This document shows positions 559-51,626 of a stretch of DNA of 64,000 nt, piece by piece. The notes beneath the pieces were generated by a model that saw only the letters and a list, made by a program, of their open reading frames with translations, was not told the origin of the DNA and searched no databases. Origin of the DNA: a virus (taxonomy: Duplodnaviria > Caudoviricetes); IMG/VR virus record IMGVR_UViG_3300005686_000008; one strand, written 5' to 3'. Made by a program: the position numbers and the translations under genes. Each line of letters opens with the position of its first letter. Position 1 is the stretch's first letter.

Positions 559-650
559 GGATGGAACTCAGATAGCTGGTTTTCTGTACCTGCTTGGAAA
601 GCAGGCGTACACCGCAAGGGGTACTGTGGGTTCGACTCCCTCTCCATCCG
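559..650 (+). tRNA. tRNA-Ser(GGA)
   Basis: GGATGGA/TCCATCC acceptor, cctgc-TT-GGA-AA-gcagg anticodon arm, long variable arm, G73; no encoded CCA. Confidence 0.9.
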
Positions 651-653
651 CTT

Positions 654-1037
654 ATGAAAAATCTCTTAGTAATCATGGCTGCTACTATGATGCTTCTTTG
701 TTCTTGCGAAAGAACATTGCCAGGCACTAATATGAAAACAGCTTATGGTATTGTTGATGGTAAAGAAATAATACCTGGTTACTTCATAACAATTGATGAT
801 TCTCAAACGCTGGATTTTGGCGAAATAACCATAGTTATTCCTGCGAGTCATCAAGAATGGGTTCCTGAAAAGTATAAAGTTTTTGTGGTATATAGAAATG
901 AACAAGATGAAAAGCAAAGAGCATTCTTCTATGTTTCTAAGTTTGAATATGAATGTTTCTTATTTCAAGAAGAAGTAGAAGTTAATGCTGATGGTACAGT
1001 TAGGAAGATGAGCGATATAATTGCTCAAAATAGGTAG
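654..1037 (+). CDS. Putative lipoprotein (start corrected to 654)
   Basis: MKNLLVIMAATMMLLCSC signal/lipobox-like N-terminus; upstream in-frame extension is the tRNA. Confidence 0.7.
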   Translation: MKNLLVIMAATMMLLCSCERTLPGTNMKTAYGIVDGKEIIPGYFITIDDSQTLDFGEITIVIPASHQEWVPEKYKVFVVYRNEQDEKQRAFFYVSKFEYECFLFQEEVEVNADGTVRKMSDIIAQNR

Positions 1038-1184
1038 GAAGTGTAATGATAAGATATTTGCTTTGTTTGATTGTCGGACATGATACTGGAAGAAAGTATT
1101 ACTACGACTTGTGTAGAAATGAATGGTATAGAGATTTTCGTTATTGCGAAAGATGCGGGAATCACCTGTAAAGAGAACTAGGGC

Positions 1185-1532
1185 ATGTTGAACCTCGATA
1201 AAGTACCTAAGAATCTTGAAGAAGCGCTTGAGATACTAGACGGTCTTGCAGAGACTGACAAGAGTTATCTCAAAGCAAACGGAAGCGTTTCAGTCCATTT
1301 TGGATTTGGAGGATGGCTCCGCAATAACTGGAGTCTTTGGGAAAAAGATACTCCATTTGTCTTGTGGTTCAATAAACTTGGCATATATCATGCTGACGAT
1401 ATGAGCGGTATCATACTTGAAGCTTTTATTGCAAGGCTTCGAGGAGAACCGTATGATATGCAGCCAACTATACAGAGATATAGAAATCATTGGTCTTCTA
1501 TCGGACTGGATCCAGATAGGATAATGGAATGA
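1185..1532 (+). CDS. DUF6794-like protein
   Basis: HFGFGGWLRNNWSLW...HADDMS motif. Confidence 0.65.
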   Translation: MLNLDKVPKNLEEALEILDGLAETDKSYLKANGSVSVHFGFGGWLRNNWSLWEKDTPFVLWFNKLGIYHADDMSGIILEAFIARLRGEPYDMQPTIQRYRNHWSSIGLDPDRIME

Positions 1533-2105
1533 ACAACTTAGAGAAATATTCCAAGCAAATAAAGAAAATGGATCGTCTTGCTCTTGGTTATGAGCGAATG
1601 CTAGACTTCTTTTTTGGCTATATCTATGCTTTATATCACTCAGGAAAAATAACCCTAAAAGAGAAGAATGCTCTTCACAAGGTCTATTCTAGTTATGATA
1701 ATGGTAACGAAAGATACCAAATTATAGACGGCAAACTGGTAGATAATAGTAAAGATCCAGAGTGGAGAGAGATGTTTGGAGAAGGCTGATGAACGAGAAA
1801 GACAATAAGCCCAGTTTTGAACTAACGTTTGGCCTAACAAACATATTCATTTCTATTCAAGAACTGATTGGCGAAGTTTGTAATCCTAAAGATTATGAGA
1901 AGTTTGATAGATTGTTTTCACTGCATAGGCTCTATCAAAGAGCCATAGAAGAAGGTTATGAAAAGTTTGATTGGAAGGTAATGCACGAAAATGGTCATTT
2001 GTCTTCAAGAGATTACAAACTCTTTGAAAAAGAACTTAATGGATTAACAGAAGAGATGTACTGGAAAGCGTTGGGATATGATAGTATTCCAGGAAGAAAG
2101 AAATA

Positions 2106-2381
2106 ATGATTACTCAAGCCCCAATTTGGAGTAAGAAAGACTCAAATGGCTACTTCTGTCATAAAGAAGTAATACATGACGACTTGTTGCCATGTCCTTT
2201 TTGCGGTGGCGAGGCGGATATAATGCTAAGCGGAGATGCTTGGCATGCAAGGTGTAGAAAGTGCTTTGCGAAGTCTGGATATCAGAATCTTCCTGCTCGT
2301 TGGAATAGCAATAAGTGTCTTGATACTCACTTGATCAAGAAAGCGGTTAAGGCTTGGAATAAGCGTGTAAAGAAATCTTAG
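2106..2381 (+). CDS. Lar-family restriction-alleviation-like Zn-ribbon protein
   Basis: LLPCPFCGGEA...CxxC...AVKAWNKR. Confidence 0.75.
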   Translation: MITQAPIWSKKDSNGYFCHKEVIHDDLLPCPFCGGEADIMLSGDAWHARCRKCFAKSGYQNLPARWNSNKCLDTHLIKKAVKAWNKRVKKS

Positions 2382-2410
2382 TGTTGGTTGAAAAGCCGAT
2401 AACTAGGTTT

Positions 2411-2554
2411 AGCTAGTCGAATGGAATGGGTTAACATTATAAGTTCAACTCTTATCCCCGCCTCTTAAAACTATGGCGGGGTAGCCTAACGGTAAGGCAA
2501 CTCTCAAAATCGCAAGATTAGAGAGCTAACCCCAGACCAACAAACATACTAGCT
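2411..2554 (+). ncRNA. YrlA-type Y RNA (1)
   Basis: Terminal stem AGCTAGT/ACTAGCT with GTCGAATG motif; permuted tRNA module: T arm, then loop-closed CCCCGCC/GGCGGGG acceptor, then D arm TAGCCTAACGGTAAGGC. Confidence 0.8.
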
Positions 2555-2557
2555 TAT

Positions 2558-2632
2558 GCTCGCTTACCAAAATTGGACAAATGGCTCTGCCTGCAAAGCA
2601 GAAGTGTACAGGTTCGAGTCCTGTAGCGAGCT
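2558..2632 (+). tRNA. tRNA-Cys(GCA)
   Basis: GCTCGCT/AGCGAGC acceptor, CT-GCA-AA loop, U73. Confidence 0.9.
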
Positions 2633-2634
2633 TT

Positions 2635-2769
2635 TTACAATAAGCCGAACGGAATGGATTATCGAAGGTTCGACTCCTCCATCCCTCCCTAAGAGTCATA
2701 GCCTTGGGGGTTCATAGGGATACGCCTAGGTGGTTCAGGCATTCCAAACCAATACCTTGTTTATTGTAA
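2635..2769 (+). ncRNA. YrlA-type Y RNA (2)
   Basis: TTACAATAAGC/GTTTATTGTAA terminal stem, GCCGAACG motif, T arm GGTTCGACTCC, then ATCCCT...AGGGAT and D arm GCCTAGGTGGTTCAGGC. Confidence 0.8.
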
Positions 2770-2772
2770 TAT

Positions 2773-2859
2773 GCTCCTGTGCCAGAGAGGTTGAATGGAC
2801 CTGCCTGCAAAGCAGACTCGCCTTGTTGCGACACGTTGGTTCGAATCCAACTGGGAGCT
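2773..2859 (+). tRNA. tRNA-Cys(GCA) with long variable arm
   Basis: CT-GCA-AA loop, U73, extra arm TCGC-cttgtt-GCGA. Confidence 0.8.
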
Positions 2860-2862
2860 TTT

Positions 2863-3102
2863 ATGAGAAAGATGAAACTGAAAGAAGCTATTGAGATCTT
2901 ACAGGTCTCTGAAGACAAACAACAACAAGCCATTGCAAAGTTACTTGACGATGCAAGAGACAAGATGAATGCATTGTTTGAACTTGCTTCTGGCGAGTAT
3001 CACGGCAACGAAGGTAATGAAGAAAACGAAATAGACGATATACTTGCAAAGGCAGCAGAAGTTCTTGAAAGACCTTATACTAGGCTTGTTCAAGACGAAT
3101 AG
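2863..3102 (+). CDS. Hypothetical protein (start corrected to 2863)
   Basis: ATG 3 nt after tRNA-Cys. Confidence 0.65.
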   Translation: MRKMKLKEAIEILQVSEDKQQQAIAKLLDDARDKMNALFELASGEYHGNEGNEENEIDDILAKAAEVLERPYTRLVQDE

Positions 3103-3111
3103 AATTTTGAT

Positions 3112-3187
3112 CGCGGAGTTGACTGGAATTGGCCCCAGCGTGAGCCTCATAAACTCAACTATACAGGTTCGAATCCTGTCTCCGCTA
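3112..3187 (+). tRNA. tRNA-Met(CAT), initiator-like
   Basis: CT-CAT-AA loop, unpaired C1:U72, CGCGGAG acceptor; anticodon stem imperfect. Confidence 0.8.
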
Positions 3188-3190
3188 TTT

Positions 3191-3472
3191 ATGAAAAACA
3201 TACAGATAAAAGGCACAGACAAGTCTTTGCTTTTGATAGGATTGCTCAACTTTCTGCTTTTTCAGTGGTTCTTTGTGAGATTGGCGTTAAACGTTGATCC
3301 TCCGATAAAGGATTACGTTACGAAAAGAAGGCCGCTATACTTGTTGAAGTGGGTTGTTCCTCTTTCGGGCTGGTTTGGGATTCCTTTTTTTCCTAGAAGC
3401 TACAAAATGGTCTTACTTCTTTCAGGAATAGAAGTGTGTATTGCTCCTTATGTAAGAAAAGGCTTTGACTAA
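3191..3472 (+). CDS. Hypothetical membrane protein (start corrected to 3191)
   Basis: ATG 3 nt after tRNA-Met; hydrophobic segments. Confidence 0.6.
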   Translation: MKNIQIKGTDKSLLLIGLLNFLLFQWFFVRLALNVDPPIKDYVTKRRPLYLLKWVVPLSGWFGIPFFPRSYKMVLLLSGIEVCIAPYVRKGFD

Positions 3473-3528
3473 ACAAGGAGTGTTCTGTTGAAACTTTGAA
3501 AATTGGTTGACGATGATGGTAAAGCAAA

Positions 3529-3600
3529 GCTCCCGAAGCTTTAGTGGATGAGCAGCAGCCTTTTAAGCTGCGGAAGAGGGATCGTTACCCTACGGGGGCA
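3529..3600 (+). tRNA. tRNA-Lys(TTT)
   Basis: gcagc-CT-TTT-AA-gctgc; variant T loop ATCGTTA. Confidence 0.85.
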
Positions 3601-3660
3601 TTTGAAGATAAAATTGAAGTTCTAAACCCAAAAGGTCGATTAAAGGCATAGGAGATATCT

Positions 3661-4041
3661 ATGCCTTACAAAAATATCGAAGACCATAAAGCCTACCAGA
3701 AGAAATATCAAAAAGAATGGTATAAAAGAAACAAGAAACAACACATCAAAAATGCTAATCGACTAAAAATCAAGCATGCTGAAGAGGCTTACAAATACAC
3801 AAATGATTTCAAGAAACAACAAGGATGCTTGAACTGTAAAGAAAATCACATTGCATGCCTTGAATTTCATCATAAAGATGCATCAACAAAAGAATTCGAA
3901 ATAAGCTGGGCGATTAATGCTGGATATGGGTTAGAAAGAATAAAAGCTGAAATAGAAAAATGTAGTGTTTTGTGTTCAAATTGCCATAAAAAACTACATT
4001 GGGAAGAACGAGAATCGAAGAAAGTCAGTTTGAACAAATAG
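3661..4041 (+). CDS. HNH endonuclease
   Basis: CxxC...LEFHH...CSVLCSNCHKKLH. Confidence 0.85.
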   Translation: MPYKNIEDHKAYQKKYQKEWYKRNKKQHIKNANRLKIKHAEEAYKYTNDFKKQQGCLNCKENHIACLEFHHKDASTKEFEISWAINAGYGLERIKAEIEKCSVLCSNCHKKLHWEERESKKVSLNK

Positions 4042-4048
4042 TCGTTTG

Positions 4049-4072
4049 CGGGTTCAAATCCCGCTGGGGGCA
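4049..4072 (+). pseudogene. Orphan tRNA 3' end (T arm plus acceptor strand)
   Basis: GCGGG-TTCAAAT-CCCGC-TGGGGGCA; ends like tRNA-Lys (GGGGGCA). Confidence 0.65.
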
Positions 4073-4134
4073 CTTTGATGGGATACATTTGGAAGTAAAA
4101 ATAGAGGCAATGGAAGGCCGAAAAGAAGAATGAA

Positions 4135-4207
4135 GGGGTCTTAGCTCATTTGGTAGAGCGATTGCTTTGCAAGCAATAGGCGGCGAGTTCGAATCTCGCA
4201 GGCTCCA
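4135..4207 (+). tRNA. tRNA-Ala(TGC)
   Basis: G3:U70, TT-TGC-AA loop. Confidence 0.92.
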
Positions 4208-4210
4208 CTT

Positions 4211-4408
4211 ATGTACTATACAGAAGACGCAATGGATCAGGTCAAAGATATGCGCAAAGTTTTAGCGGAATGTAAAAAGCTTTGCGAAGAAGATAAATCT
4301 GCAACTCCTTTGCAAAAGAAAATCCTAGAATTGTTAGGATTGCTTGAAGATGTTGCCGAAAATACGTTAATGAGCGAATATAGGTTTTTCGATCATGATC
4401 TTGATTAA
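4211..4408 (+). CDS. Hypothetical protein
   Basis: ATG 3 nt after tRNA-Ala; fills the gap between two tRNAs. Confidence 0.65.
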   Translation: MYYTEDAMDQVKDMRKVLAECKKLCEEDKSATPLQKKILELLGLLEDVAENTLMSEYRFFDHDLD

Positions 4409-4409
4409 T

Positions 4410-4483
4410 GGGCTTGAAGTTCAATTTGGTTGAACATTCCCCTCGCACGGGAAAGGCAGGGAGTTCGACTCTCCCCAGGTCCA
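4410..4483 (+). tRNA. tRNA-Ala(CGC)
   Basis: G3:U70, ttccc-CT-CGC-AC-gggaa. Confidence 0.88.
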
Positions 4484-4491
4484 CTTGTTAT

Positions 4492-4562
4492 AGCCTGATA
4501 GTGTAACGGTAGCACTAGTGACTCTGACTCACTCAGTCTAGGTTCGAATCCTAGTCGGGCTA
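4492..4562 (+). tRNA. tRNA-Gln(CTG)
   Basis: agtga-CT-CTG-AC-tcact; canonical T arm. Confidence 0.88.
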
Positions 4563-5179
4563 CTTTCAATAACATCACTTATGATGTCTAAAAACTTTTT
4601 AGCCCTGTCTTCTTTGAAGTAATCAAAACTAGAAGTATCTATGATACAAAGTTCAATACCGTTTTCTAAACAGGCTTGAAACTTTCGTTGGTCATTGTTT
4701 TTGATTGAAGTGAGTTTTTCAGGACCATGAATAGGTTCATAATGGTAAATACCATTGAGTTCGAAGGCAATCTTTAGACTCGGTATGTAAATGTCAAGTT
4801 CTGAATTGATAGCATCTTTCCTGTTAAAATGAAACTCAAGATCAGTAAATTTATCTTTGAGTTTTTCTTCTAACCATTTTTCTAGCTTACTTCTTCTTAT
4901 TCCATGTGTTTTGTGAGCGTTGTTGTATTTGGCAGCACAGGATTTTGAGCAGAAAGCTTTATTTGATTTTCTGTTTTGAGAAGCAAGTCTTTTGAAAGAT
5001 TTTTGACAATTTTGACATGTGAAACATTGGGCTATAGAGTTTTTTGTTCGATAATCAAAATGGCATTTCCTACTGCAAAATCGCAGAATGGGATTGTGTT
5101 TTCTAGATCCTGATTCAAGATGCGGATCGTTTTCGTATTCTTGCAAACAGTTAGCACAAGTGTTTTTGTAAGTTTTCAT
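4538..5179 (-). CDS. Zn-finger plus PD-(D/E)xK (Vsr-like) putative homing endonuclease
   Basis: Repeated CxxC...FCSxxC modules; ELDIYIPSLKIAFELNGIYH; its 3' end overlaps tRNA-Gln antisense. Confidence 0.8.
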   Translation of the reverse strand: MKTYKNTCANCLQEYENDPHLESGSRKHNPILRFCSRKCHFDYRTKNSIAQCFTCQNCQKSFKRLASQNRKSNKAFCSKSCAAKYNNAHKTHGIRRSKLEKWLEEKLKDKFTDLEFHFNRKDAINSELDIYIPSLKIAFELNGIYHYEPIHGPEKLTSIKNNDQRKFQACLENGIELCIIDTSSFDYFKEDRAKKFLDIISDVIESSPTRIRT

Positions 5180-5479
5180 ATAAGGATATTCGACTTGTTT
5201 TCGAAATATCCTTTTCGAATCTTAGTCAGGCTGTTATGAAAAGAACTATACATCCTGCAAATGTTGCAGAAAACGACATAGTTGAGTTTGTGAAATTTGA
5301 TTATCACAAAAAATCGAACACCTTTATACCAAAAGGTACAAAAGCTAGATTTTTGGAATGGATTAAAGATGAAGGAATAGAATTTGCATATGCAAGCATA
5401 GTTCCTATTGATGTTGATACGAAGGGTTGGGTTTGGACAAACCCAGATATTCTTGTAATAGAAGAATCCTAGTCGGGCT
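4543..5479 (+). repeat. Three copies of the tRNA-Gln 3' end (4543-4561, 5214-5232, 5464-5479)
   Basis: TTCGAATCCTAGTCGGGCT / TTCGAATCTTAGTCAGGCT / GAATCCTAGTCGGGCT. Confidence 0.85.
5236..5472 (+). CDS. Hypothetical protein between tRNA-Gln 3'-end copies
   Basis: ORF track; its TAG stop lies inside the third repeat copy. Confidence 0.65.
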   Translation: MKRTIHPANVAENDIVEFVKFDYHKKSNTFIPKGTKARFLEWIKDEGIEFAYASIVPIDVDTKGWVWTNPDILVIEES

Positions 5480-5556
5480 GTTTGGTGATTAGATTACGCA
5501 TTATAATTCGCCTATGAGTTGAATTCCAACGCATAATCTAATCAGAAAGGGTAAAA

Positions 5557-5646
5557 ATGACAAGTAAACAGAAGAACGTAGCAAGAAAGCATCGCAAGAA
5601 TCAGGAAAGACTTCGTAGGAAGAGGCGAGAGGCAAGGACTAAGTAA
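5557..5646 (+). CDS. 29-aa highly basic peptide
   Basis: GAAAGGGT SD, MTSKQKNVARKHRKNQERLRRKRREARTK*; TAATG-coupled to the next gene. Confidence 0.6.
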   Translation: MTSKQKNVARKHRKNQERLRRKRREARTK

Positions 5647-5899
5647 TGTTCACATTTGCAACCGTTTTAAGTGGTTCTAAGATTTCTTGTAATGAAACTT
5701 ACGGAGAGGATTTGCGGCAGGTAAGAGTGAATGCTCATATTCGTCAGTTTCCCTATAAGGGAGTTGACAGGATTGAAGTATATGATGCTGTAACAGGAAA
5801 ACTTATTCCATTAGATTCTTTGAACAAGTTTGAACAAGAGAATCTAATAGATGAGGCAAATGCAGAGTTGAGATATTTGAATTTGCAAGGATGATTTAT

Positions 5900-5971
5900 T
5901 GGCCTATGGTGTAACGGTCAGCACCGGAGACTTTGGATCTTTGTGTCTAGGTTCGAATCCTAGTAGGCCAG
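5900..5971 (+). tRNA. tRNA-Gln(TTG)
   Basis: TGGCCTA/TAGGCCA acceptor, CT-TTG-GA loop, G73. Confidence 0.9.
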
Positions 5972-6329
5972 TTTAGGAATGAGACAAATGAAAAAGAAAC
6001 TAACAGACAGACAGAAGAATCTTGCTAGCGATCAGTTTCCGACTTATGGAGGCTATGCTACATGGCCTGAAGTCAAGAAAGCAAAGATTGCCGCAAGAGG
6101 AAGATATTGGAACAGGGAAGAGTTCGGAGAGTTTGTTGCTTTTACTCCTGATGGTAAAAGAACATATTATGTCTACGATGATGAATGGGTGAACGAAGTA
6201 AGAAAGTGCGCAAGGCTCTGGAGCTTAGGGAAGAGAAAAGAAGCCGATGAGCTTTATGAATCATATTGGGAAGGTTATGAATCATATGGGAAAGGTTGTG
6301 TTTTCAAGAATAAGAAGTGAATAATGCAG

Positions 6330-6455
6330 GTAATCGTAGCTCAGAGGTAGAGCATCCGCCCCAAAATCTTAGGTAATGATCAGGTGAAGTACAAGCTTGG
6401 GAATCTAAGGTCTTGGACAATCGGAAGGTCGGTGGTTCGAATCCATCCTTCTACT
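6330..6455 (+). ncRNA. tRNA-like RNA with a ~55-nt hairpin inserted in the anticodon loop
   Basis: Canonical D arm TAGCTCAGAGGTAGAGC and T arm GGTGGTTCGAATCCATC; weak acceptor stem. Confidence 0.65.
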
Positions 6456-6507
6456 TTTTGATAGAAGACAGTTGGTTAGTGGCGCTTTATTATGAAAGGA
6501 GCTTGCC

Positions 6508-7258
6508 ATGAGTAGGTACAATAACGAATGGAACAAGGGCCTCCAAAATAAGGATCAGGAGTTGCTTTGACCCGTCTTCTATCCTTATTGAGATAAGGGC
6601 AGGCGAAGGCGGCGAAGATGCTAAAAACTTTGTTCATGAACTCGCCTCTATTTATGCGAAATACGCAGTAAGAAAGAACCTAAATGTCACGATAGTTGAT
6701 ATTGATAACGGTTCTTCAACTCTCGAAATCAGCGGTAAAGATTCATTAGCCGCTTTCGAAAACGAATCTGGTAAACACGTTGTTCAAAGATGCCCTCCTT
6801 CCGAAAGAAGCGGACGTAGGCATACATCAACTGTTTCCGTTGGCGTTCTTCCTCTTTTTGCTTTCAAATCAGCAGTTATAAGAGAAGAAGATATCGAAAT
6901 AACGTTTCAAAATGCTTCCGGCCCCGGAGGGCAAGGAGTTAATACATGCAAGAGCGCATGTAGAATGAAACATATTCCAACAGGGATAGCAGTCAAGTCT
7001 CAAGTTCATCGTTCTCCTCAACAGAATAAGTCTCATGCATATGCTTTGTTATGCGGAAGAGTGCAAGAACAGAAGTTTGCAGCGCAGAATAAAGAATATG
7101 CCGCAAGAAGAAAGAAAATTCTTGGAGATACTGGTAGGGGAGGCGCTAGAAGAACCTATTGTTTCTACAAAGGTTTTGTTTCCGACCATGTTACTGGTAA
7201 AAAAACTCACAACATCAAAGAAGTCGTTAAAGGAAACCTCGGCTTATTGTCGAACTAA
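6508..7258 (+). CDS. Class-I peptide chain release factor homolog (~249 aa) expressed via a +1 programmed frameshift at CTT-TGA-C (6565-6571)
   Basis: AAGGAG SD and ATG 6508; 20 codons to AGGAG-TTG-CTT-TGA-C; +1 frame reads DPSSILIEIRAGEGGEDA...FENESGKHVVQRCPPSERSGRRHTS...SGPGGQGVN..., continuous with ORF 6965-7258. Confidence 0.9.
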
Positions 7259-7281: not shown

Positions 7282-7317
7282 GAGATGGACAGGATGGTGT
7301 CCTGTTCATCTCTTTTT
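7282..7317 (+). terminator. Intrinsic terminator
   Basis: GAGATGGACAGGA...TCCTGTTCATCTC-TTTTT. Confidence 0.75.
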
Positions 7318-7392
7318 GGGGTCTTAGCTCAATTTTGGTAGAGCGCGACGCTGGCAGTGTTGAGGTTACGGGTTCGAGTCCCGTAGATTCCA
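7318..7392 (+). tRNA. tRNA-Ala(GGC)
   Basis: G3:U70, CT-GGC-AG loop. Confidence 0.88.
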
Positions 7393-7395
7393 CTT

Positions 7396-7578
7396 ATGAA
7401 AAGAGCAAAGTCGGTTATTACAAAGATCAATGATAAAACAGGCAGGTATGAAAAGCTCTCTATAAAAGCTCCAAAAGGCACCAGAAAGGTCGGAGTGGAC
7501 CAGAATGGTGCTATTATTATCTATGATGACAAAGGGAATGTGGTTGCCTTTCGCAAGGAAGGCAATAAAAAGGAGTGA
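7396..7578 (+). CDS. Small basic hypothetical protein
   Basis: ATG 3 nt after tRNA-Ala. Confidence 0.6.
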   Translation: MKRAKSVITKINDKTGRYEKLSIKAPKGTRKVGVDQNGAIIIYDDKGNVVAFRKEGNKKE

Positions 7579-7617
7579 ATGGTACTGACGGAAGCATTTG
7601 ATTGTCGATGACAAAAT

Positions 7618-7756
7618 AAGACAAGTCGAAGCGTCTTAGGTTAACATTCATGCAAAGGGAAGCTTAAGATGGTTTCTCACTGGATGGAAACCAGCCCATG
7701 CTAGACATGGGAGCAAGTTGTCTGGATCCCTAGGAGCGCAGAACCTAACTTGTCTT
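7618..7756 (+). ncRNA. Y RNA-like RNA (3), degenerate tRNA module
   Basis: AAGACAAGT/ACTTGTCTT terminal stem with GTCGAAG motif; internal CTGG-ATGGAAA-CCAG followed by CCCATG/CATGGG hairpin. Confidence 0.6.
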
Positions 7757-7760
7757 TTCT

Positions 7761-7834
7761 CAGGGTGTAGCTCAGCTTGGTAGAGCGATTGGTTTGGGTC
7801 CAATAGGCCGCAGGTTCGAATCCTGTCTCCCTGA
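7761..7834 (+). tRNA. tRNA-Pro(TGG)
   Basis: CAGGGTG acceptor, TT-TGG-GT loop. Confidence 0.9.
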
Positions 7835-7837: not shown

Positions 7838-8128
7838 ATGTATCAGAATACGCATACTCTTTATTATGGTTCTTTCTATTCTGCTGCTCGTAAATGGATT
7901 AATGAACAAACTTCTAAAGGTAAAACTGTAACAGTTAAAGCCTTCTGCGAACAGCACGATATATGTAAGAAATGTAAAGGTCTTGGTTGCGGAACATGCG
8001 GACGAAAAAGAATGCCATTTGAAGTATTCTCAACTCGTCAAACTAGAAAACAGAAGATAATGAAGAAACGAAGAAAGATGGAAAAGAAGATTCTCGCTAA
8101 ACAAGCCTTTGATAAAATATTCGGATAA
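7838..8128 (+). CDS. Hypothetical Cys-rich basic protein
   Basis: ATG 3 nt after tRNA-Pro; CKKCKGLGCGTC. Confidence 0.6.
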   Translation: MYQNTHTLYYGSFYSAARKWINEQTSKGKTVTVKAFCEQHDICKKCKGLGCGTCGRKRMPFEVFSTRQTRKQKIMKKRRKMEKKILAKQAFDKIFG

Positions 8129-9498: not shown

Positions 9499-9503
9499 CT
9501 TAA

Positions 9504-9684
9504 AACCTGTTCTGTTTCGCTTCTAAGGCGAAAGTGACTGGGGCTACCGAACCTAGGCCTCGGGTCATAGGGTCCAGCTTATGCCAGGGATCACCCTAAG
9601 TAAAAATAAGGGAGCCGGCTCTGCTAATTACAGGGAACTTCCGAGAGTAATAGGACGTGAGGAAGTTGGCGAAACAGACAGGTT
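9504..9684 (+). ncRNA. Unassigned structured RNA (~180 nt)
   Basis: AACCTGTTCTGTTTCGC pairs with GCGAAACAGACAGGTT; GC-rich interior. Confidence 0.55.
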
Positions 9685-10885: not shown

Positions 10886-10982
10886 GGCTAGGAGCAAATT
10901 CTTTGCTCACAAACTTGTCTCGCAAGAGGCCGACGAGAAAAGATTAACTGGAAGCGAGTGGGTTCAACCCCCACCCTAGCCG
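10886..10982 (+). ncRNA. Non-canonical tRNA-like RNA
   Basis: GGCTAGG/CCTAGCC-G acceptor, T arm GTGGGTTCAACCCCCAC; GCAA-tetraloop hairpin in place of an anticodon arm. Confidence 0.65.
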
Positions 10983-10985: not shown

Positions 10986-11258
10986 ATGAGAAGATTAGAA
11001 ACGTTTCTTGGTTCTGATGGAAAATATCACCATGATGGTGATTGCTGGATATATGCAATTAACGGCGTTTGTACTTGCGGATTACTACACATTGTTAATA
11101 GAGATGCAGATAATCCAGATTATAAATGCTTGATGGAAAATCTTTGGAAGCATGAAGGGAATCTGCATTATCTTAACAACATAGAGATACCTAAGAGAGA
11201 ACCAATAAGTGATGAAAAATTCAAGGAAATAATGGAAAAGGCTGGTTGGAAAGTTTAG
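10986..11258 (+). CDS. Hypothetical protein
   Basis: ATG 3 nt after the tRNA-like RNA; HHDGDC...CTCGLLH. Confidence 0.65.
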   Translation: MRRLETFLGSDGKYHHDGDCWIYAINGVCTCGLLHIVNRDADNPDYKCLMENLWKHEGNLHYLNNIEIPKREPISDEKFKEIMEKAGWKV

Positions 11259-13493: not shown

Positions 13494-13575
13494 GCCACCG
13501 TGCCCCGAATGGTAAGGGACCGCTTTTGTAAAGCGGCGTCGAAAGATATTGCAGGTTCAAGTCCTGTCGGTGGCT
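13494..13575 (+). tRNA. tRNA-Thr(TGT) with long variable arm
   Basis: ccgct-TT-TGT-AA-agcgg; GCCACCG/CGGTGGC acceptor; extra arm GTC-GAAA-GAT. Confidence 0.8.
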
Positions 13576-13577
13576 TT

Positions 13578-15005
13578 ATGACTGAAAATAAAACAGAACG
13601 GAAGCCTCTCTATACCGTCGAAAGAGATGACGATTCTTTTCGTATATTTAGAAAAGGCTATGTGGATGCAACAGTGAAGATTGTTGATTCTGTTATTAAA
13701 GTAAGTATTGCTCCACATACGGAAAAAGATATGTTCGTAGGAGACTTCAGAGGATTGAAGAATGTTATTATTTCTGAAGTAAAAGGCAACTGGCTTAGAA
13801 ACGAAAAAGACAAGCATAAGAAGCCTAATAAAAAAGGTGCCGATTTCATTCATAAAGATTTTTCAGAATGGCTTGATAAGGCCTTCTCTAAAGGATTAAC
13901 ATATATTCTTTTCCCAGAATGGAAAAGGCTTGCAGACAAGGCCGATCCTAATATTCTCAAAATATACAAGAAGTTTATTTCTGTACGAGGACCAAAGGTT
14001 CAGATTCCTGATATATTGAAAATTGAGGCAACCTACAAAGACGAAGACTTTGTAAAAGATGCTCTTACTTATAATTCAATACACTTGTGCTTGGAAAAAG
14101 CAAGTATACTGAATGGAAAAGTTTGTTATGAAATAAGAGACCCCGAACACAGAGGGGGATATTTGAATTATGGAAACAGATATCATACAATGAAAACTCG
14201 CAATTGGAGACTTTTGTTTTCCGATTGTCCAACAACCTATAAAGCTCTTAATAAGACTTTAGATAACTGGCCTAGAGGAGTTCCTGCTCATATGGCTTTT
14301 TATCTTGCCAATATTCATCTCTCAGTGCCGGTTAGTGATAGAGTAAAGCTTATTGCCATTTTGCAAGCAGCTCAAACTATAAGGTATGCAAGACAAAATC
14401 ATCTTAACTGCATAATGAAATCAGAACCTGAGCAAATAAGAAAAGCATTCTATATACACAAAAAGAACCATGAAAGACAGCATCCATACAGTAAAGGGAA
14501 ACTTAACTTAAGAGGAAGCAAGTCTATTTGTAACTTTATTAGTACAACGTGCGATTTCCCTGAACCTCATCATGGAGGTTTCATTAAGCTTGCAGAAAAG
14601 TCCGATGAATGGCATCGCACTGCAAGATGGGAATTTGATCTTCCAAAGGATTTGGATACAAAAGACTCTCTAACAAAGAAACCGCTTATTCCGTTACCAG
14701 AACATAAAGAACTAAGATTCCTTGCTTCAATGAAAGAAATAAGAGATGAAGGTAGGGAAATGGGTCATTGTATAGCATCTTATGCCGAATCAGCCGTTTC
14801 TGGATCTTGTTTCCTTTTCCATTGCGATTATGAGGAAGAAAAGGCTTCCATAATGCTTGACAAGTATGGGAATGTTGTTCAATCTTTTGGTCCTAGAAAC
14901 TGTACTAACAAGGCTTCTCAATGGGCTTCGGCAGAACTTGCAAAATGGGGTAAAAAGATTGCTGAAATGTGGAATAGAGTCGAAGAAACTGCGGAGGTTT
15001 TCTAA
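13578..15005 (+). CDS. PcfJ-like domain protein (start corrected to 13578)
   Basis: C-terminal EIRDEGREMGHCIASY...QSFGPRN. Confidence 0.75.
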   Translation: MTENKTERKPLYTVERDDDSFRIFRKGYVDATVKIVDSVIKVSIAPHTEKDMFVGDFRGLKNVIISEVKGNWLRNEKDKHKKPNKKGADFIHKDFSEWLDKAFSKGLTYILFPEWKRLADKADPNILKIYKKFISVRGPKVQIPDILKIEATYKDEDFVKDALTYNSIHLCLEKASILNGKVCYEIRDPEHRGGYLNYGNRYHTMKTRNWRLLFSDCPTTYKALNKTLDNWPRGVPAHMAFYLANIHLSVPVSDRVKLIAILQAAQTIRYARQNHLNCIMKSEPEQIRKAFYIHKKNHERQHPYSKGKLNLRGSKSICNFISTTCDFPEPHHGGFIKLAEKSDEWHRTARWEFDLPKDLDTKDSLTKKPLIPLPEHKELRFLASMKEIRDEGREMGHCIASYAESAVSGSCFLFHCDYEEEKASIMLDKYGNVVQSFGPRNCTNKASQWASAELAKWGKKIAEMWNRVEETAEVF

Positions 15006-45741: not shown

Positions 45742-45749
45742 AGATAAGA

Positions 45750-45957
45750 CAACAAGGTTCGATCTATCGCTCTACCCCGTAAGGGATGAGAGGAAGTTCG
45801 CGACTGCACCACCTACCGTTGGAGGCCTAAACAGCCGTTCGGACAACGTAAGCAGCAACTCAAACAGTCTGAGAGCGTCGGTGGCTCTATGAGGACGGGT
45901 TGAGGCCATTAGAGAAATGATAGAATAGAACAGAATCGCGGCTACGGAATCTTGTTG
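45750..45957 (+). ncRNA. rnpB: Minimal RNase P RNA
   Basis: P1 CAACAAGGTTC/GAATCTTGTTG; CR-I GAGGAAGTTCGCG; CR-IV AGAAATGAT; CR-V AACAGAATCGCGGCTA. Confidence 0.85.
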
Positions 45958-46036
45958 TTTTTTATTTCATTGTGAAGGAATTGGCGATGCTCCGATAGAA
46001 ATACGAAATAACCCATGTTAACGCAGGAGACCGATA

Positions 46037-46354
46037 ATGAGCGCCATACTTTACATTGACACAACAGATAAAAACGTTTACTCTTTCCTTCCAGATGTTA
46101 CTGGTAAGGCAGTTATCGGTCTCGATTTGCCGCCTGGCGTTCCTGTTCAACTGCTTATAACTCAAGTTCAAGCCTTTATAGCAGGAATAACTCGATTCCC
46201 TATTCCTGTCATAATTAAGGCAACGTTTGCAGATCCTCCGATGCCTCCTCCGCCAAGCCCATCTCCAAGTCCGGCTCCTGAACCTTCCCCATCTCCAAGC
46301 CCGGCTCCTGAGCCATCACCATCTCCGTCTCCTTCCCCAAGTCCTGCTCCATAA
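46037..46354 (+). CDS. Small protein with Pro-Ser repeat tail
   Basis: (PS)n/PAPE repeats with varied synonymous codons; AGGAG SD. Confidence 0.7.
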   Translation: MSAILYIDTTDKNVYSFLPDVTGKAVIGLDLPPGVPVQLLITQVQAFIAGITRFPIPVIIKATFADPPMPPPPSPSPSPAPEPSPSPSPAPEPSPSPSPSPSPAP

Positions 46355-47258
46355 CATAGATTGAATATAAATTGAACGCAGGATATTATGATAGAAATGA
46401 ATCGCTAGAACTCTTCTTAGAAAGACAGAGAAGATATGCCCTTATAATGAAGGGAACTCCTGAAGAACAGTCCAAACTGAAAAAGTTATGGATAGAAGCT
46501 AGTAGGCTCGCTGGTAGTGATTGGTGCGAATATTCTAATGAAGAAACAACCGATAAGGGTATAGAGGAGTCTGCTAAATTATTGGGCGAGTTTAGGATTC
46601 TCCTTGCAAACATTCTTCATCGTGAGGAAACAAAATGGCAAAGCGAGAATCAAACAAAAAGCAGTTTGGAAGTATAGACACTGTTATATCTTTTTTACAA
46701 ACTAGACCTGATGTTGGCGGGTTTATCATACAAAAGAACGAAGATACCATAGAGTTTGATGGTTATTTTTCAGACGAGTTTTTGGGCAAAACACCAGAAG
46801 AGGCCTTTGGCACGCTTACCGTAGTCATAGCATCTATGAGAAACATGGCCGATACTCTTACGAAAAGACTCATAGCCTTATCTGGTGTGCCAGAAAATGA
46901 TGTCAAAAAAGGTATATCAGAAATGTATTATGAGATTTCTAAGACAGAACCAAACAAGAAAGATGACGACTAAATAAAAGGCTGTTATATGATAAAGGGA
47001 CTCGCTGCAACGATGGATACCTTTATGACTCTGATGATGTCGTTTGTTCTTTTTGTGACTTTTGGATTTCTTGGAACATTTGTAAATGGCTGGTTCTTTT
47101 TTGCGAACGCATTTCTGATTGTTTACTTGCTGTTTTTTATTCCGGCAAGAAATAAAGCTCTTCAAATGGAAGAAATCTTTGAAAGCGACTCCAAGAATAG
47201 CGGTCCCAAGCCCTCCCATTGATGAAGAAAGCGGCTAGACTAAACTTTTGCCGCAGAG

Positions 47259-48305
47259 ATGAAGGATACTATGGAAGCGAAAGCGATCCTGTCAATACCT
47301 GAAAATCAACCTGAGAGAATCTTCCCGAATTCGGAAGATGAAGCAAAGAGTGTTTTCCGGAAGTTGATAAAAGAGTGGCATCCAGACCACAATAAGAGCA
47401 GCGAAGCTCAGCAGGTAACATCTCACTTGCAAAAACTCTATGACGAGGTAATCGGTCGTATTCAAAAAGGAACCTGGTCTCTTCCTAACACCCTAACTTT
47501 TAAGGGTGTTGATGGTAAAGTTAGAACGGTCAAGTATCGTCGTAAGCGCAGTTTTGAACTGGGAGATTTTGCATACGGCGATAGAGTTGTATGCTATGTA
47601 GTAAAACCTGATTGCAAAGACTTGTTTGGCAGGGGACTTGAAACTATCAAGCATGGATTCAAGTACGAAAACAAGGAAATGGAAGAGGAAATTTCCAGGT
47701 ATCTTCCTAATCCTCTTGATTCTTTCGAGACTCAAGACGGTCATATGGTTCTTGTTCTTTCAAAGACTCCTGACGTTTTCCTGCTTCAAGATGTGTTAGA
47801 CCATTTCGGCGGAACTATTGATCCGAAGCATGTGGCATGGATTGTAAGCTGCATGCTTAATCTTGCATGCTACATGAGATACGCCGGAATAACCCATAAC
47901 GCGCTGTCAACAACCAATCTCTTCATTTCTCCACAATTTCATAGCATGGTCATACTCGGAGGTTGGTGGTATTCACAAAAAGTAGGGAAAAAGCTTGAGG
48001 CACTTCCTAGAATGTCGGCAGATATCGCTCCTATGGAGATGTTGGCCGATAAGATTGCAGACCACAAACTAGACCTTATGCTTGTCAGGGATATTGGGCT
48101 GGAACTTCTTGGTGATTCTTCTGGTTCTACTTTGCTACATGATGGCAAGACTCCTCAACCGTTAGTCAATTTCTTTAGAAGCATTACTGATGGTAACGCT
48201 TTTCAAGAGTATGAACGTTGGACGAAAAAGATTCTGATTGACAGTTTCGGCAAACGTCGCTTTGTCGAAATGAAAATTGAAGCAAGCGACATTTATAAGG
48301 ATTGA
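47259..48305 (+). CDS. J-domain plus kinase-like protein
   Basis: KEWHPD; C-terminal HVAWI...GITHNAL...GGWWY. Confidence 0.75.
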   Translation: MKDTMEAKAILSIPENQPERIFPNSEDEAKSVFRKLIKEWHPDHNKSSEAQQVTSHLQKLYDEVIGRIQKGTWSLPNTLTFKGVDGKVRTVKYRRKRSFELGDFAYGDRVVCYVVKPDCKDLFGRGLETIKHGFKYENKEMEEEISRYLPNPLDSFETQDGHMVLVLSKTPDVFLLQDVLDHFGGTIDPKHVAWIVSCMLNLACYMRYAGITHNALSTTNLFISPQFHSMVILGGWWYSQKVGKKLEALPRMSADIAPMEMLADKIADHKLDLMLVRDIGLELLGDSSGSTLLHDGKTPQPLVNFFRSITDGNAFQEYERWTKKILIDSFGKRRFVEMKIEASDIYKD

Positions 48306-48308
48306 ATA

Positions 48309-49217
48309 ATGGGAAATTCACGTTGGGATAGCGATAGTTGGACGAGTTATAGCGCTTCTGTTTCTTCGGCCCCTCGCGCAGCCATTTTTACCAGTAATGG
48401 AATGGATGATTCCCTTGATCCCAAGAAGATCAAGTTCCGTGAATCTGTTGATTCGGCTGCAAATCCGAATTCAACTCCCATTATGATTGGGGTTGATGAA
48501 ACTGGTTCAATGGGCGCTCTTGCTGAACAGATTATCAAGGAAGGCCTTGGAATCGTTATGAAGGAGATTTACGAGCGCAAGCCCGTTACTGATCCTCATT
48601 GCCTTTTGGCCGGCGTTGGCGATGCTGCTGCTGACCAGTCTCCTCTTCAGGTGACTCAGTTTGAGGCGGCTGTTGAGCCTTTGACAAAGCAGATTGAGAA
48701 GATTTACCTTGAAGGTAATGGCGGCGGCAACAACGGCGAGTCTTACAATCTCCTCTGGTACTTCGCTGCTCATAAGACGAAGTGCGATGCGATTAGCAAG
48801 CGCAAGCGCAAGGGGTATCTCTTCACTGTTGGTGACGAGAGGGTTCTTCCTAGCCTTACGAAGAGCCAGATCCAGAGGATTTTCGGCGATGATGTAGAGT
48901 CTGATATCAAGACCAAGGATCTTCTCAATCAGGTGAAGAAGCACTGGGAAGTCTTCCATATCATCGTTGAAACCAGCGCAACAAGGGATCAGGGCGCTAT
49001 TGAAAACTGGCGCGAGATTCTTGGCGAACGTGCTATCGTTATCCCCAACAAGGATAGTCTCGCAGAGATTATTGTTTCAACCATTCAGGTCAACGAAGGC
49101 GCTGACGCTGATAAGGTTGCTGATTCTTGGGACGGTTCAACTGCTGTTGTTGTTCGCGATGCTCTCAAGAACCTGAGTAAGTCATCCAGCGGTTCGAGCG
49201 ACCTGGTTCGCATGTAA
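48309..49217 (+). CDS. vWA-domain protein
   Basis: DETGSMG MIDAS-like motif, EGNGGGNNGESY, FTVGDE. Confidence 0.8.
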   Translation: MGNSRWDSDSWTSYSASVSSAPRAAIFTSNGMDDSLDPKKIKFRESVDSAANPNSTPIMIGVDETGSMGALAEQIIKEGLGIVMKEIYERKPVTDPHCLLAGVGDAAADQSPLQVTQFEAAVEPLTKQIEKIYLEGNGGGNNGESYNLLWYFAAHKTKCDAISKRKRKGYLFTVGDERVLPSLTKSQIQRIFGDDVESDIKTKDLLNQVKKHWEVFHIIVETSATRDQGAIENWREILGERAIVIPNKDSLAEIIVSTIQVNEGADADKVADSWDGSTAVVVRDALKNLSKSSSGSSDLVRM

Positions 49218-49242
49218 TCTCGCTTCAACAGGAGAATGTTAG

Positions 49243-50502
49243 ATGAACGTCACGGCAGTCATTGGCGCTAACTTCGGAGATGAAGGCAAGGGCCTAATGA
49301 CCGATTATTTCAGCGATAAAAAGACTGTCGTGGTACGACATAATGGCGGAGCGCAGGCTGGACACACTGTTGTTACTCCTGATGGTATTCGCCATGTATT
49401 TAGTCATTTTGGTAGCGGTACTCTTGCGGGTGCCGCTACCTTTCTTGGCCCTCGCTTTATTATCAATCCTCTTCTCTGGAAGAAAGAATTGGGGATTCTA
49501 AAGAAGATGGGTTTTGACCCAAAGGTTTTCTATGCTGGCGGGCTTGTAACCACTCCGTATGACATGCTAATTAACGAAGAGATCGAACGGTCTCGCGGAG
49601 ATGGTCGTCATGGCTCTTGCGGCGTTGGGATTAATGAGACAGTAACCCGTCATTATTCGGAAAAGTTTGCTTTTCCTCGTCTTAGGATTGACTCTAAGTG
49701 TAATATCCTGACTCGCAATAAAATTGTCAATACCGTAAAAAATATTCGCGACGAATATTGCGCTGCTCGCATCAAGGAGATTGGACTTTCTCCCAAGGCT
49801 TCATTCTACAGTATTTTCAATTCCGAAGCCTTACTTGAACGTTATGTTGACAATGTTATTGAGTTTGCCGAGCATTGCATCGAAATCAACACGGATGCCC
49901 AGGGTCTTAGAACTATGGGCATTCATCTTGGCGGCGAAGTCAATAACCTTGTGTTTGAAGGAGCGCAAGGTCTCCTTCTTGATGAAGAGCATTATTTCTT
50001 CCCTCATGTAACTAGAAGCAAGACTGGCCTAAATAACGTTCTTGATATTTGTCGCCAGTTTGAAATTAAAGAGGCTGATGCAACTTATGTTACTAGAGCG
50101 TATATGACCCGTCATGGACAAGGCCCATTTCCTAGCGAAGAAAAAGAACTCAAGTACGAAGATAAGACAAATGTTACTAATGAGTTTCAGGGAAGCCTTC
50201 GTTTTGGCTCTCTTGATGTTGACCTTACAAGCAAGGCTATTAGGAACGATCTTATCCTAGCTAGCGATAGGTTCTTTGAGCATACTGGTTGGGAACCCAT
50301 CAAGGTAAATCCTTCAATAGCTATTACCTGTCTTGATCAGGTCGGAAAAGAGATTTGTGTTTATGATGATGGAGAGAGATTTACTCTCAATGATGTTAAT
50401 GATCTGGTAGATATTTTTGTTGATAAGTGTAATATCCATGATTTTTATACAAGTTATGGCCCAACAAGAGCAAAAATATCTCCTCTATGCGTTGGAAAGT
50501 AA
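49243..50502 (+). CDS. purA: Adenylosuccinate synthetase-like protein
   Basis: GANFGDEGKG, GGAQAGHT, FEGAQGLLLD, TRHGQGP. Confidence 0.88.
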   Translation: MNVTAVIGANFGDEGKGLMTDYFSDKKTVVVRHNGGAQAGHTVVTPDGIRHVFSHFGSGTLAGAATFLGPRFIINPLLWKKELGILKKMGFDPKVFYAGGLVTTPYDMLINEEIERSRGDGRHGSCGVGINETVTRHYSEKFAFPRLRIDSKCNILTRNKIVNTVKNIRDEYCAARIKEIGLSPKASFYSIFNSEALLERYVDNVIEFAEHCIEINTDAQGLRTMGIHLGGEVNNLVFEGAQGLLLDEEHYFFPHVTRSKTGLNNVLDICRQFEIKEADATYVTRAYMTRHGQGPFPSEEKELKYEDKTNVTNEFQGSLRFGSLDVDLTSKAIRNDLILASDRFFEHTGWEPIKVNPSIAITCLDQVGKEICVYDDGERFTLNDVNDLVDIFVDKCNIHDFYTSYGPTRAKISPLCVGK

Positions 50503-51336
50503 TAAATGGATAACATACTGTTTGACATTCGAGGCGATAAAGGGCAGTTCAAAGCCGCAATGGATTATATCAAATCTATTGCTCCAGGCGGCAAAGCCGT
50601 TCGCTATGCTATTGTTCCCACAAAAGGATTGGTTCTTTTCTGGCATGAACAAGATGATAAAATTGTTAAACTAGACTTCCCGTATATAACAGATCCTAAA
50701 TGGAATAAGGATACTGCCAAATCTTTTAATGTTGAACTTAAAAAGTTTGATATTCCTTGGGAGAAGTTTGTAGAGGCGTGGGTTTTTTCTACAGATCCTA
50801 CTCAGTTTGAACTTGATGAATGGGAAAGAGACCTAGAAGATTTTGATGGTAGCACTGGTAATGGTTTTAGAATAACTTGCGATACATGGGGTCATGTTGG
50901 TGGAAACCATTATGCATTTGCTATCATAAAGCCGATTTTTGCATGGTATGGCAAATAAAAGGAATTGAAATATGAGTATTGGAACCTCAGAAGCAAAGAG
51001 TATGCTCAAGAAATGGAACAGCCTTCAAAAGGTTGCTGATAAGCTAGGTCTTTACATTTCTGATGAATATTCAGATCAAGACTATGAATATGTAGTTGTC
51101 CCAAAGAATATGAAGAGGCATCTTCCTGTCCTTATTGGTCTTCATGATCAAAATGGGTTCCGCAACAATTTCCCAATTTGGTATCTTGAAAATATGGATA
51201 GCATTTTAGACTTCCTTGGAGGCATTGCGCTTTCTCAAGGGAAAGTCTTGACTGTAGAAGATAACGATCATGACAAATGGATTCTTGCAGATCCTGAAAA
51301 GTTTAGCGCTAAAGACCTGAACAGGGATTGATATAA

Positions 51337-51410
51337 GCCCCCGTAAGCTCAATGGTAGAGTTAGGAGTCTCTAAAACTCTTTGTTGCAGGTTCGAGTCCT
51401 GCCGGGGGCG
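51337..51410 (+). tRNA. Amber suppressor tRNA (anticodon CTA)
   Basis: ggagt-CT-CTA-AA-actct; GCCCCCG/CGGGGGC acceptor; canonical D and T arms; G73. Confidence 0.85.
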
Positions 51411-51413
51411 TTT

Positions 51414-51626
51414 ATGGATTTCAAGTATTTAGAACGAAAGCATGGGAGGGCTTTTGTTGTTCAATTGAGAAAAGATTTCAAGGATTTTGAAACTCATATT
51501 AACAATGGAGGCTTTGTTCCCGGCGGAGGCTGGTGCAGCTGTCACGAAAGATATGACTGTCCATGCTGGAAAGAAAGATGGCCTGACCTTGCAAACGAAC
51601 CTTATCCAAGAAAGAAACAATTATGA
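51414..51626 (+). CDS. Hypothetical protein (start corrected to 51414)
   Basis: ATG 3 nt after the suppressor tRNA. Confidence 0.6.
   Translation: MDFKYLERKHGRAFVVQLRKDFKDFETHINNGGFVPGGGWCSCHERYDCPCWKERWPDLANEPYPRKKQL

Follow-up and report, generated by a model that had tools for sequence, protein, structure and literature searches.

Why does a start codon stand almost directly behind so many of the tRNA genes in one part of a large phage genome? The part in question, hereafter the window, is a stretch of 64,000 nucleotides (nt) from a virus of the Caudoviricetes (IMG/VR record IMGVR_UViG_3300005686_000008), and corresponds to bases 155170-219169 of a single phage contig of 494,120 bp. ARAGORN predicts 71 tRNA genes genome-wide, all on the + strand, of which 16 lie within the window. 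A first-pass annotation had listed ten places in the window where an ATG follows the tRNA discriminator base (N73) by 2 or 3 nt, and had proposed that tRNA 3' processing releases near-leaderless mRNAs there, tRNAs and tRNA mimics acting as expression cassettes.

We defined a junction as flush when an open reading frame (ORF) of at least 55 aa begins with an ATG 1-4 nt behind the discriminator. Such junctions are found at 14 of the 71 tRNAs of the genome, and at 8 of the 16 in the window. The expected count is 1.75 when taken as the mean of the other 4-nt bins up to offset 116, and random genome positions give an equal figure (Poisson P=5.7e-9, binomial P=2.0e-9). This comparison of tRNA-to-start distances with a null had been proposed in the first-pass annotation, and it bears the claim out: the arrangement is real and far above chance. 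Spacers between tRNAs and genes are bimodal, being either 1-4 nt long without a Shine-Dalgarno (SD) sequence, or about 19-30 nt long with one (e.g. AAGGAG, CAGGAG). At the 14 flush junctions the 3' spacer measures 2-4 nt; on the 5' side, 8 of the 16 window tRNAs begin at most 9 nt after the preceding stop codon.

All ten listed junctions can be read in the sequence. The discriminators at 650, 2859, 4207, 7392, 7834, 13575 and 51410 are placed by ARAGORN or Rfam, with a 3-nt spacer in front of the ATGs at 654, 2863, 4211, 7396, 7838 and 51414, and a 2-nt spacer in front of the ATG at 13578. At the tRNA-Met the junction stands and the exact spacer does not, as the Rfam model stops at 3186 instead of 3187, leaving a spacer of 3 or 4 nt. 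At 5233/5236 the junction sequence is correct, but what ends at 5233 is a 3' remnant of a tRNA-Gln, and the base there is not the discriminator of an intact tRNA. The features are given below, with the codon log-likelihood ratio (LLR) of some ORFs and, for one of them, the ratio of nonsynonymous to synonymous differences (pN/pS) relative to L126 and L003, two related contigs.

559-650, + strand: tRNA-Ser(GGA), no CCA, trailer CTT at 651-653 (ARAGORN).
654-1037, + strand: flush ORF, 127 aa, lipoprotein-like N-terminus, without SD, LLR +38.
2773-2859, + strand: tRNA-Cys(GCA), trailer TTT (ARAGORN, Rfam).
2863-3102, + strand: flush ORF, 79 aa, LLR +24; flush orthologues in L126 and L003, pN/pS 0.31-0.46.
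3111-3187, + strand: tRNA-Met(CAT), discriminator 3186 or 3187, trailer (A)TTT (ARAGORN, Rfam).
3191-3472, + strand: flush ORF, 93 aa, hydrophobic, LLR +7, the lowest among the flush ORFs of the window.
4135-4207, + strand: tRNA-Ala(UGC), trailer CTT (ARAGORN, Rfam).
4211-4408, + strand: flush ORF, 65 aa, LLR +12; its stop lies 1 nt ahead of tRNA-Ala(CGC) at 4410.
5215-5233, + strand: tRNA-Gln 3' remnant of repeat family D6, T-loop and acceptor 3' strand only, weak fold; followed by TT, then ATG.
5236-5472, + strand: ORF of 78 aa, flush behind this remnant; at its 3' end it overlaps with another tRNA-Gln 3' remnant, 5461-5483.
7318-7392, + strand: tRNA-Ala(GGC), trailer CTT (ARAGORN, Rfam).
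7396-7578, + strand: flush ORF, 60 aa, small basic protein.
7761-7834, + strand: tRNA-Pro(UGG), trailer CTT (ARAGORN, Rfam).
7838-8128, + strand: flush ORF, 96 aa, not at this position in relatives.
10886-10982, + strand: tRNA-like element, 7-bp acceptor stem, T arm, discriminator G, trailer CTT.
10986-11258, + strand: flush ORF, 90 aa, after the tRNA-like element; called in one public assembly of the same phage (L138).
13493-13575, + strand: tRNA-Thr(UGU), trailer TT (ARAGORN, Rfam).
13578-15005, + strand: flush ORF, 475 aa, PcfJ-like (Pfam PF14284).
51337-51410, + strand: amber-suppressor-type tRNA (anticodon CUA), trailer TTT (ARAGORN).
51414-51626, + strand: flush ORF, 70 aa, LLR +10.7.

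That a YTT occupies the place of the CCA, as had been noted for these junctions, proves largely true of the whole genome. CCA is encoded after the discriminator in 0 of the 71 tRNA genes, and the three nt found there are CTT (26), TTT (21) or TTA (14) in 61 of them. The YTT trailer is general to the tRNAs whatever follows, and is no special mark of the flush ones.

Are the ORFs behind these trailers genes? They might be chance open frames in tRNA spacers, as they are short, lack family annotation (none has a Pfam family above cut-off except PcfJ, and none a PHROGs family), and are called inconsistently by automatic gene finders across identical assemblies. Codon log-likelihood is nevertheless positive in frame for all the flush ORFs of the window and strongly negative in both other frames. 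Four flush ORF families with orthologues in related contigs have pN/pS values of 0.30-0.75, hence below 1, at a synonymous divergence (pS) of up to 0.85; the 475-aa PcfJ-like protein carries a Pfam domain, and an enrichment with P about 2e-9 is not what chance frames would give. We hold the chance explanation to be barely credible. Judged by codon usage and divergence, the flush ORFs are genuine genes under purifying selection.

The flush ATGs likewise appear to be their true starts, codon scores, pN/pS and homologue N-termini being in agreement. For the PcfJ-like protein, the flush ATG is where nearly all of 14 homologues (36-41% identity) have their N-termini in the alignment. Two public calls of this ORF, P0001 and P0010, are longer solely by reading into the tRNA (window 13500-13577): their extra residues (e.g. 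AGSSPVGGF) are the translated T arm and acceptor, the extension of P0001 amounting to 23 codons. The lipoprotein-like N-terminus of ORF 654 also requires the first ATG.

We looked for the same habit in relatives, which were found via the PcfJ-like protein and have the syntenic order RF2, thioredoxin, RlaP, PcfJ. An IMG/VR scan with the PcfJ-like protein as single query gave no match, whereas an alignment-based scan did find homologues; a search for close relatives in INPHARED returned nothing beyond a tRNA match of 66 nt, to Agrobacterium phage Atu_ph07. Flush junctions recur in the syntenic relatives at differing frequencies.

L003 (with L130 part of G001): 6 of 13 tRNAs flush at offset 2-3 and a seventh at +5; 2 more in L130.
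L126: 5-6 of 9 tRNAs flush.
L001: 2 of 13 tRNAs flush.
L127: 1 of 6 tRNAs flush.
L005: 1 of 6 tRNAs flush.

At shared junctions the exact spacing is retained. The series tRNA-Ala, CTT, ATG and small basic protein is kept in five lineages: this junction of ORF 7396 is conserved in L001, L003, L005 and L126, at pS 0.6-0.85 relative to the window. The tRNA-Cys, tRNA-Met and tRNA-Ser(GGA) junctions are common to the window and L126, and that of tRNA-Cys is also found in L003. A protein identical to that of ORF 3191-3472 is flush to tRNA-Met in L126, and the ORF flush to tRNA-Ser(GGA) in L126 is a lipoprotein-like ORF different from ORF 654. G001 has flush junctions at tRNA-Ser(GCU) and tRNA-Ser(GGA). 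Four further assemblies are 100% identical to the window, and hold no information on micro-variation at the junctions. Beyond these relatives, we scanned IMG/VR with the pattern T-loop, N12, YTTATG. Among the matches listed, 59 junctions had a confirmed tRNA, and 22 of these open an ORF of 50 aa or more; the 461 unselected tRNAs in those loci show a weak excess only, at offsets 2 and 4, so that the strong effect seems to be lineage-specific.

Several conserved genes are flush in one genome and not in another. The PcfJ-like gene, flush in the window, has an SD-led start (TTAGAGG-N7-ATG) after the same tRNA-Thr in several relatives. A gene for an AAA ATPase (406-411 aa) follows the tRNA(CUA) with TT and ATG in L001, L126, L127 and L128, and has a conventional, AGGA-preceded start in the window. 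The lipoprotein-like gene, flush in the window, is overlap-coupled to an aminotransferase gene in L001, L126, L127 and L128, and stands in a tRNA-free context in L005. Because conserved genes swap contexts in this way, flush placement would be one of several interchangeable functional expression contexts, and looks like a working one. The idea of an expression cassette fits these swaps; for cleavage and mode of translation, it goes further than what we observed.

How might ribosomes start at such sites? In this genome, an SD word of at least 4 nt precedes 60% of first-ATG starts versus 18% of internal ATGs. Flush ATGs have one at 4 of 16, the background rate, and these words sit in the acceptor stem, so that the SD position does lie within the acceptor/T stems, as had been claimed. 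The start codon is ATG in 14 of 14 flush cases versus 80% of 192 SD-led starts, and codons 2-5 contain 57% A versus 37% (P=3e-5). Both features point to SD-independent initiation. The predicted cost of opening positions -12 to +13 in an uncut precursor has a median of 9.3 kcal/mol at flush starts versus 6.9 at SD-led ones (P=3e-4); for the first 25 nt of a cut mRNA, the predicted cost is 3.6 kcal/mol.

Promoters placed inside the tRNAs, which would yield leaderless transcripts directly, were ruled out, for want of a -10-like hexamer at the right distance. Between 1 and 15 kb, promoter-like hexamer pairs are at chance level (41 versus 34 +/- 7), none has its -10 box 7 nt ahead of a flush ATG, and the sequence from -12 to -7 of the flush ATGs is tRNA acceptor stem. 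Genome-wide, strong sigma-70-like sites (TTGACW-N16-18-TAKART) number five on the + strand and none on the - strand, and 4 of the 5 lie upstream of a tRNA gene or cluster.

What the sequence shows (an architecture both enriched and conserved, ORFs that are coding and have no SD, a trailer of the host type) is best read, with a probability that we put at roughly 55%, as the result of tRNA excision yielding short-leader mRNAs that are translated without SD; that the genes are co-transcribed, where the cut falls and how initiation proceeds we infer. Since tRNAs and small genes share one strand with almost no spacers, long precursor transcripts are probable. The tRNA genes and the intervening small genes would be transcribed together into such precursors, from which the tRNA-maturation machinery of the host would excise the tRNAs, RNase P acting on the 5' side. 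The 3' cut, at or just after the discriminator and within the conserved Y-U(-U) trailer, would be the work of an endonuclease, either RNase Z-like or RNase E combined with exonucleolytic trimming, and a phage-encoded CCA-adding enzyme would finish the tRNA. The downstream fragment would begin with 5'-P-YU(U)AUG, its start codon freed from the neighbouring folded tRNA, and would be translated by an SD-independent, 5'-end-dependent route of the leaderless type, which an AUG start and A-rich, unstructured early codons should favour.

Are the enzymes for this at hand? An 898-aa protein of the phage combines PolyA_pol, PolyA_pol_RNAbd and HD domains, the architecture of CCA-adding enzymes, and is putatively of this type. 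As to the host, a phosphate-type porin (window 56707-57897) has its closest named cellular homologues almost all in Phycisphaerales/Phycisphaeraceae (Planctomycetota), at 35-43% identity, which makes a host among the Phycisphaerae probable. GC content is 40% in the phage versus 66% in the sampled Phycisphaerae genomes. We inspected the 3' ends of 31 tRNA genes from two of these genomes. None of the 31 has an encoded CCA after the discriminator, and in about 28, despite the 66% GC, a T or C and then a T come next. The phage trailer thus seems to copy a processing signature of the host type, which would account for the minimum distance of 2 nt between discriminator and ATG. RNase E/G is found above cut-off in 5 of 5 Phycisphaerae genomes. 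The only RNase Z-like protein of these genomes is a divergent one, a metallo-beta-lactamase of 307-393 aa for which all the NCBIfam matches listed (7 and 6) are RNase Z models, below their cut-offs; one such protein is encoded at 404-1327 of L252, on the minus strand. Over the five genomes, the best score on the RNase Z model is 82 bits versus a cut-off of 293. A 3' endonuclease activity in the host clade is thus plausible, and its identity as RNase Z specifically is uncertain.

Several observations weigh against excision followed by SD-free translation. The leader is the first: in Caulobacter reporters, each added 5' nt roughly halves leaderless expression, and translation initiation efficiency (TIE) follows 0.45 x i^-0.91, i.e. 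about 17%, or a six-fold drop, at a 3-nt leader (PMC8459731). Translation optimised for the leaderless route would lead one to expect the ATG directly at N73+1. ORF 5236 is flush to a remnant unable to form a tRNA, which leaves nothing intact to process. No match to the RNase Z fold (Lactamase_B_2) was found in the phage proteins, and the RNase Z-like protein of the Phycisphaerae scores 74-83 bits versus cut-offs of 250-500 on the RNase Z models. The assignment of the host draws on the 35-43% porin similarity and on the shared trailer. Finally, a strong terminator-like hairpin at 7282-7312 adjoins the tRNA-Ala(GGC) unit and complicates simple co-transcription; it has 14 bp followed by TTTTT, stands 5 nt ahead of the tRNA, and is either a leaky terminator or a processing or stability element.

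Some of these points would suit another explanation, in which the ORFs are translated from precursors that are uncut, or cut only on the 5' side. The 30S subunit, with S1, would load on the A-rich, unstructured start without SD; the tRNA would be merely an adjacent structure, and its 3' processing would compete with translation instead of enabling it. The A-rich codons 2-5 suit such loading equally well, a leader of 2-3 nt is suboptimal for true leaderless initiation, and ORF 5236 has the same junction without an intact tRNA. We nevertheless consider translation from the precursor unlikely, because the acceptor/T helix of a stable tRNA takes up everything from -4 upstream, the 30S footprint is predicted to cost more to open than at SD-led genes with no SD to compensate, and tRNAs lacking CCA need a cut at or near the junction to become functional.

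For the proposed excision, the leader also decides what the product should be called. Architecture, lack of SD and conservation support the tRNA punctuation suggested by the first-pass annotation, but a leader of 2-3 nt is not equal to none. If the cut follows N73, 2-4 nt stay ahead of the AUG, which then does not form the first three nt of the mRNA as in a strictly leaderless one, nor does the 5' end arise by transcription initiation at the start codon. A cut directly ahead of the AUG, giving a strictly leaderless mRNA, is possible. The mitochondrial pattern, one strand with few or no intergenic nt, is found in the phage tRNAs and flush ORFs.

Could the flush junctions instead be footprints of DNA entry into tRNA clusters, by recombination or homing at tRNA ends followed by deletion of the spacer? 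The cluster is certainly a recombination hot spot. It contains two homing-endonuclease genes recognised by PHROGs (3661-4041, and 4538-5179 on the minus strand; Pfam gave no match for either), the second of which adjoins the tRNA-Gln remnant 5215-5233, and five orphan tRNA 3' remnants. In line with such entry, tRNA-Gln remnants lie on both sides of ORF 5236, a 17-bp direct repeat surrounds ORF 263-550, and ORF 7838 was gained exactly at a tRNA-Pro trailer: it sits precisely between the trailer of tRNA-Pro(UGG) and the thioredoxin gene, which in relatives are separated by a spacer of 22-26 nt. The lack of Pfam (except PcfJ) or PHROGs families for the flush ORFs fits as well. The junctions would then be without function in expression, with the small ORFs expressed weakly or incidentally. 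This we find improbable as a full account, as the exact spacing is retained though synonymous sites are near saturation, purifying selection acts on the ORFs, some lineages have large conserved genes (PcfJ-like, AAA ATPase) in flush positions, and the ATG-only, A-rich start signature suggests selection on initiation.

Several traces of this mobility can be described further. The 17-bp repeat is exact (246-262 and 552-568) and consists of a trailer TTT, GATT and the first 10 nt of tRNA-Ser; the ATG of ORF 263-550 comes immediately after the 10-nt tRNA 5' fragment, and an orphan tRNA 3' end lies at 220-245. The HNH endonuclease gene 3661-4041 (PHROGs E=5e-28) has on one side a tRNA-Lys (3529-3600) whose T arm is odd, and on the other an orphan tRNA-Lys 3' end of canonical form (4048-4072), whose counterpart in L126 belongs to an intact tRNA-Lys. 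The segment 3529-4075 has the appearance of a homing insertion with which a replacement 3' half of the tRNA arrived. In L126, at approximately 3900-4090 and 5100-6100, two tRNA-Pro genes are apparently split by insertions with Cys/His-rich endonuclease-like ORFs, their 5' and 3' halves lying several hundred bases apart.

The element at 10886-10982, held to be a tRNA mimic in the first-pass annotation, folds so that an acceptor stem of 7 bp stacks on a T arm (GUGGG/CCCAC), and is called as a tRNA neither by ARAGORN nor by Rfam at E<=1. L001 and L126 carry it after RlaP, with a compensatory change in the T stem (GTCGG/CCGAC) and a TTT trailer. The tRNA-like fold and its conservation thus agree with the claim, but in L001 and L126 no flush ORF stands behind the element. 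It keeps the parts recognised by tRNA-processing enzymes, and may be either a mimic or an unusual tRNA.

Other genes of the window encode an RF2-like protein, thioredoxin, an RlaP nucleotidyltransferase, an NAD-dependent ligase, a PARP-like protein and the phosphate-type porin. The RF2-like release factor gene (PCRF and RF-1 domains, 6508-7258), found at the same place in relatives, has an in-frame TGA in CTT TGA C (6565-6571) with AGGAG upstream, a classic prfB +1 frameshift site. The standard code fits the genome, and TAG recoding as an explanation of the ORF structure was ruled out, coding density being already high under table 11. At 6330-6455 there is a 126-nt tRNA match (Rfam, 34.8 bits) with an insertion of about 50 nt and a TTTTT trailer, not called by ARAGORN and possibly an intron-containing tRNA. 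Beyond the window, at genome position 149451-149532, ARAGORN predicts a tRNA whose anticodon has four bases (aggt); the gene behind it is classically SD-led. No Rfam match at E<=1 was obtained for two non-coding stretches, each about 180 nt long, at 9500-9680 (after tRNA-Pro(GGG), its beginning conserved in L001) and 7579-7760 (before tRNA-Pro(UGG)).

How does the proposed excision compare with known systems? The punctuation of animal mitochondrial transcripts by tRNAs was reportedly put forward by Ojala, Montoya and Attardi in 1981. As in animal mitochondria (reviewed in PMC8601606 and PMC4394434), mRNAs and tRNAs of the same strand abut, the spacers on either side measuring 0-9 nt; the mRNAs downstream lack SD and all but lack a leader, and tRNA excision is the presumed source of the ends. 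Unlike mitochondria, the phage has double-stranded DNA and infects a bacterium, keeps a fixed Y-U(-U) trailer of 2-3 nt between discriminator and AUG, and involves about one fifth of its tRNAs; only the first gene after the tRNA is flush, later ones being SD-led or overlap-coupled. With bacterial leaderless mRNAs (lambda cI type; Caulobacter, mycobacteria; PMC8459731, PMC4633059), the flush ORFs share the absence of SD, the exclusive use of AUG and a start region predicted to fold weakly. In contrast to these, the phage 5' end would arise by processing, as a 5'-monophosphate, and not by initiation at the AUG, and a 2-4-nt leader stays, which lowers efficiency in the species tested.

In the tRNA cluster of phage T4, CCA-less tRNA genes are matured by the host RNase BN/Z and a CCA-adding enzyme. 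The cluster described here likewise has CCA-less tRNAs with three other nt in place, an encoded enzyme of the CCA-adding type, and homing endonucleases within it, as T4 has SegB. For T4-type clusters, start codons placed flush behind the trailer are not known to us from any description. What RNase BN/Z contributes is set out in PMC4014445. Unlike in T4, the trailer here appears to copy the signature of the presumed Phycisphaerae host. Plant mitochondria have t-elements, which are tRNA-like processing signals. In Haloferax, tRNA-like elements are cut by tRNase Z (PMC4946936). Like t-elements, 10886-10982 keeps only the acceptor and T-arm features needed by processing enzymes, with an ORF flush behind; unlike them, it is either a non-functional mimic or an odd tRNA, with no ORF behind it in two relatives.

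A literature search found tRNA punctuation only in organelles, with no phage or bacterial precedent. What is new here is the fixed host-type Y-U(-U) trailer, the setting in an SD-using genome with a likely Planctomycetota host, and the flush/SD swaps of conserved genes. Tentatively, and at somewhat less than even odds, we suggest that tRNA genes serve as portable SD-free start modules in a megaphage lineage probably infecting Phycisphaerae: cleavage in the Y-U trailer by the host would set the 5' end of any ORF flush behind a tRNA, so that captured or relocated genes (PcfJ-like, AAA ATPase, lipoprotein-like and orphan ORFs) could be expressed without signals of their own, their output tied to tRNA maturation. 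If excision does release these mRNAs, tRNA punctuation would not be limited to organelles, and would be an expression strategy of large phages in an otherwise SD-using host, linking accessory-gene expression to tRNA maturation. It would explain why automatic annotation misses or mis-starts flush genes, and would offer a natural model for the tRNA-processed polycistrons used in synthetic biology. The shared Y-U trailer may also serve as a simple signal for host prediction, directly testable with a recombinant RNase Z-like enzyme.

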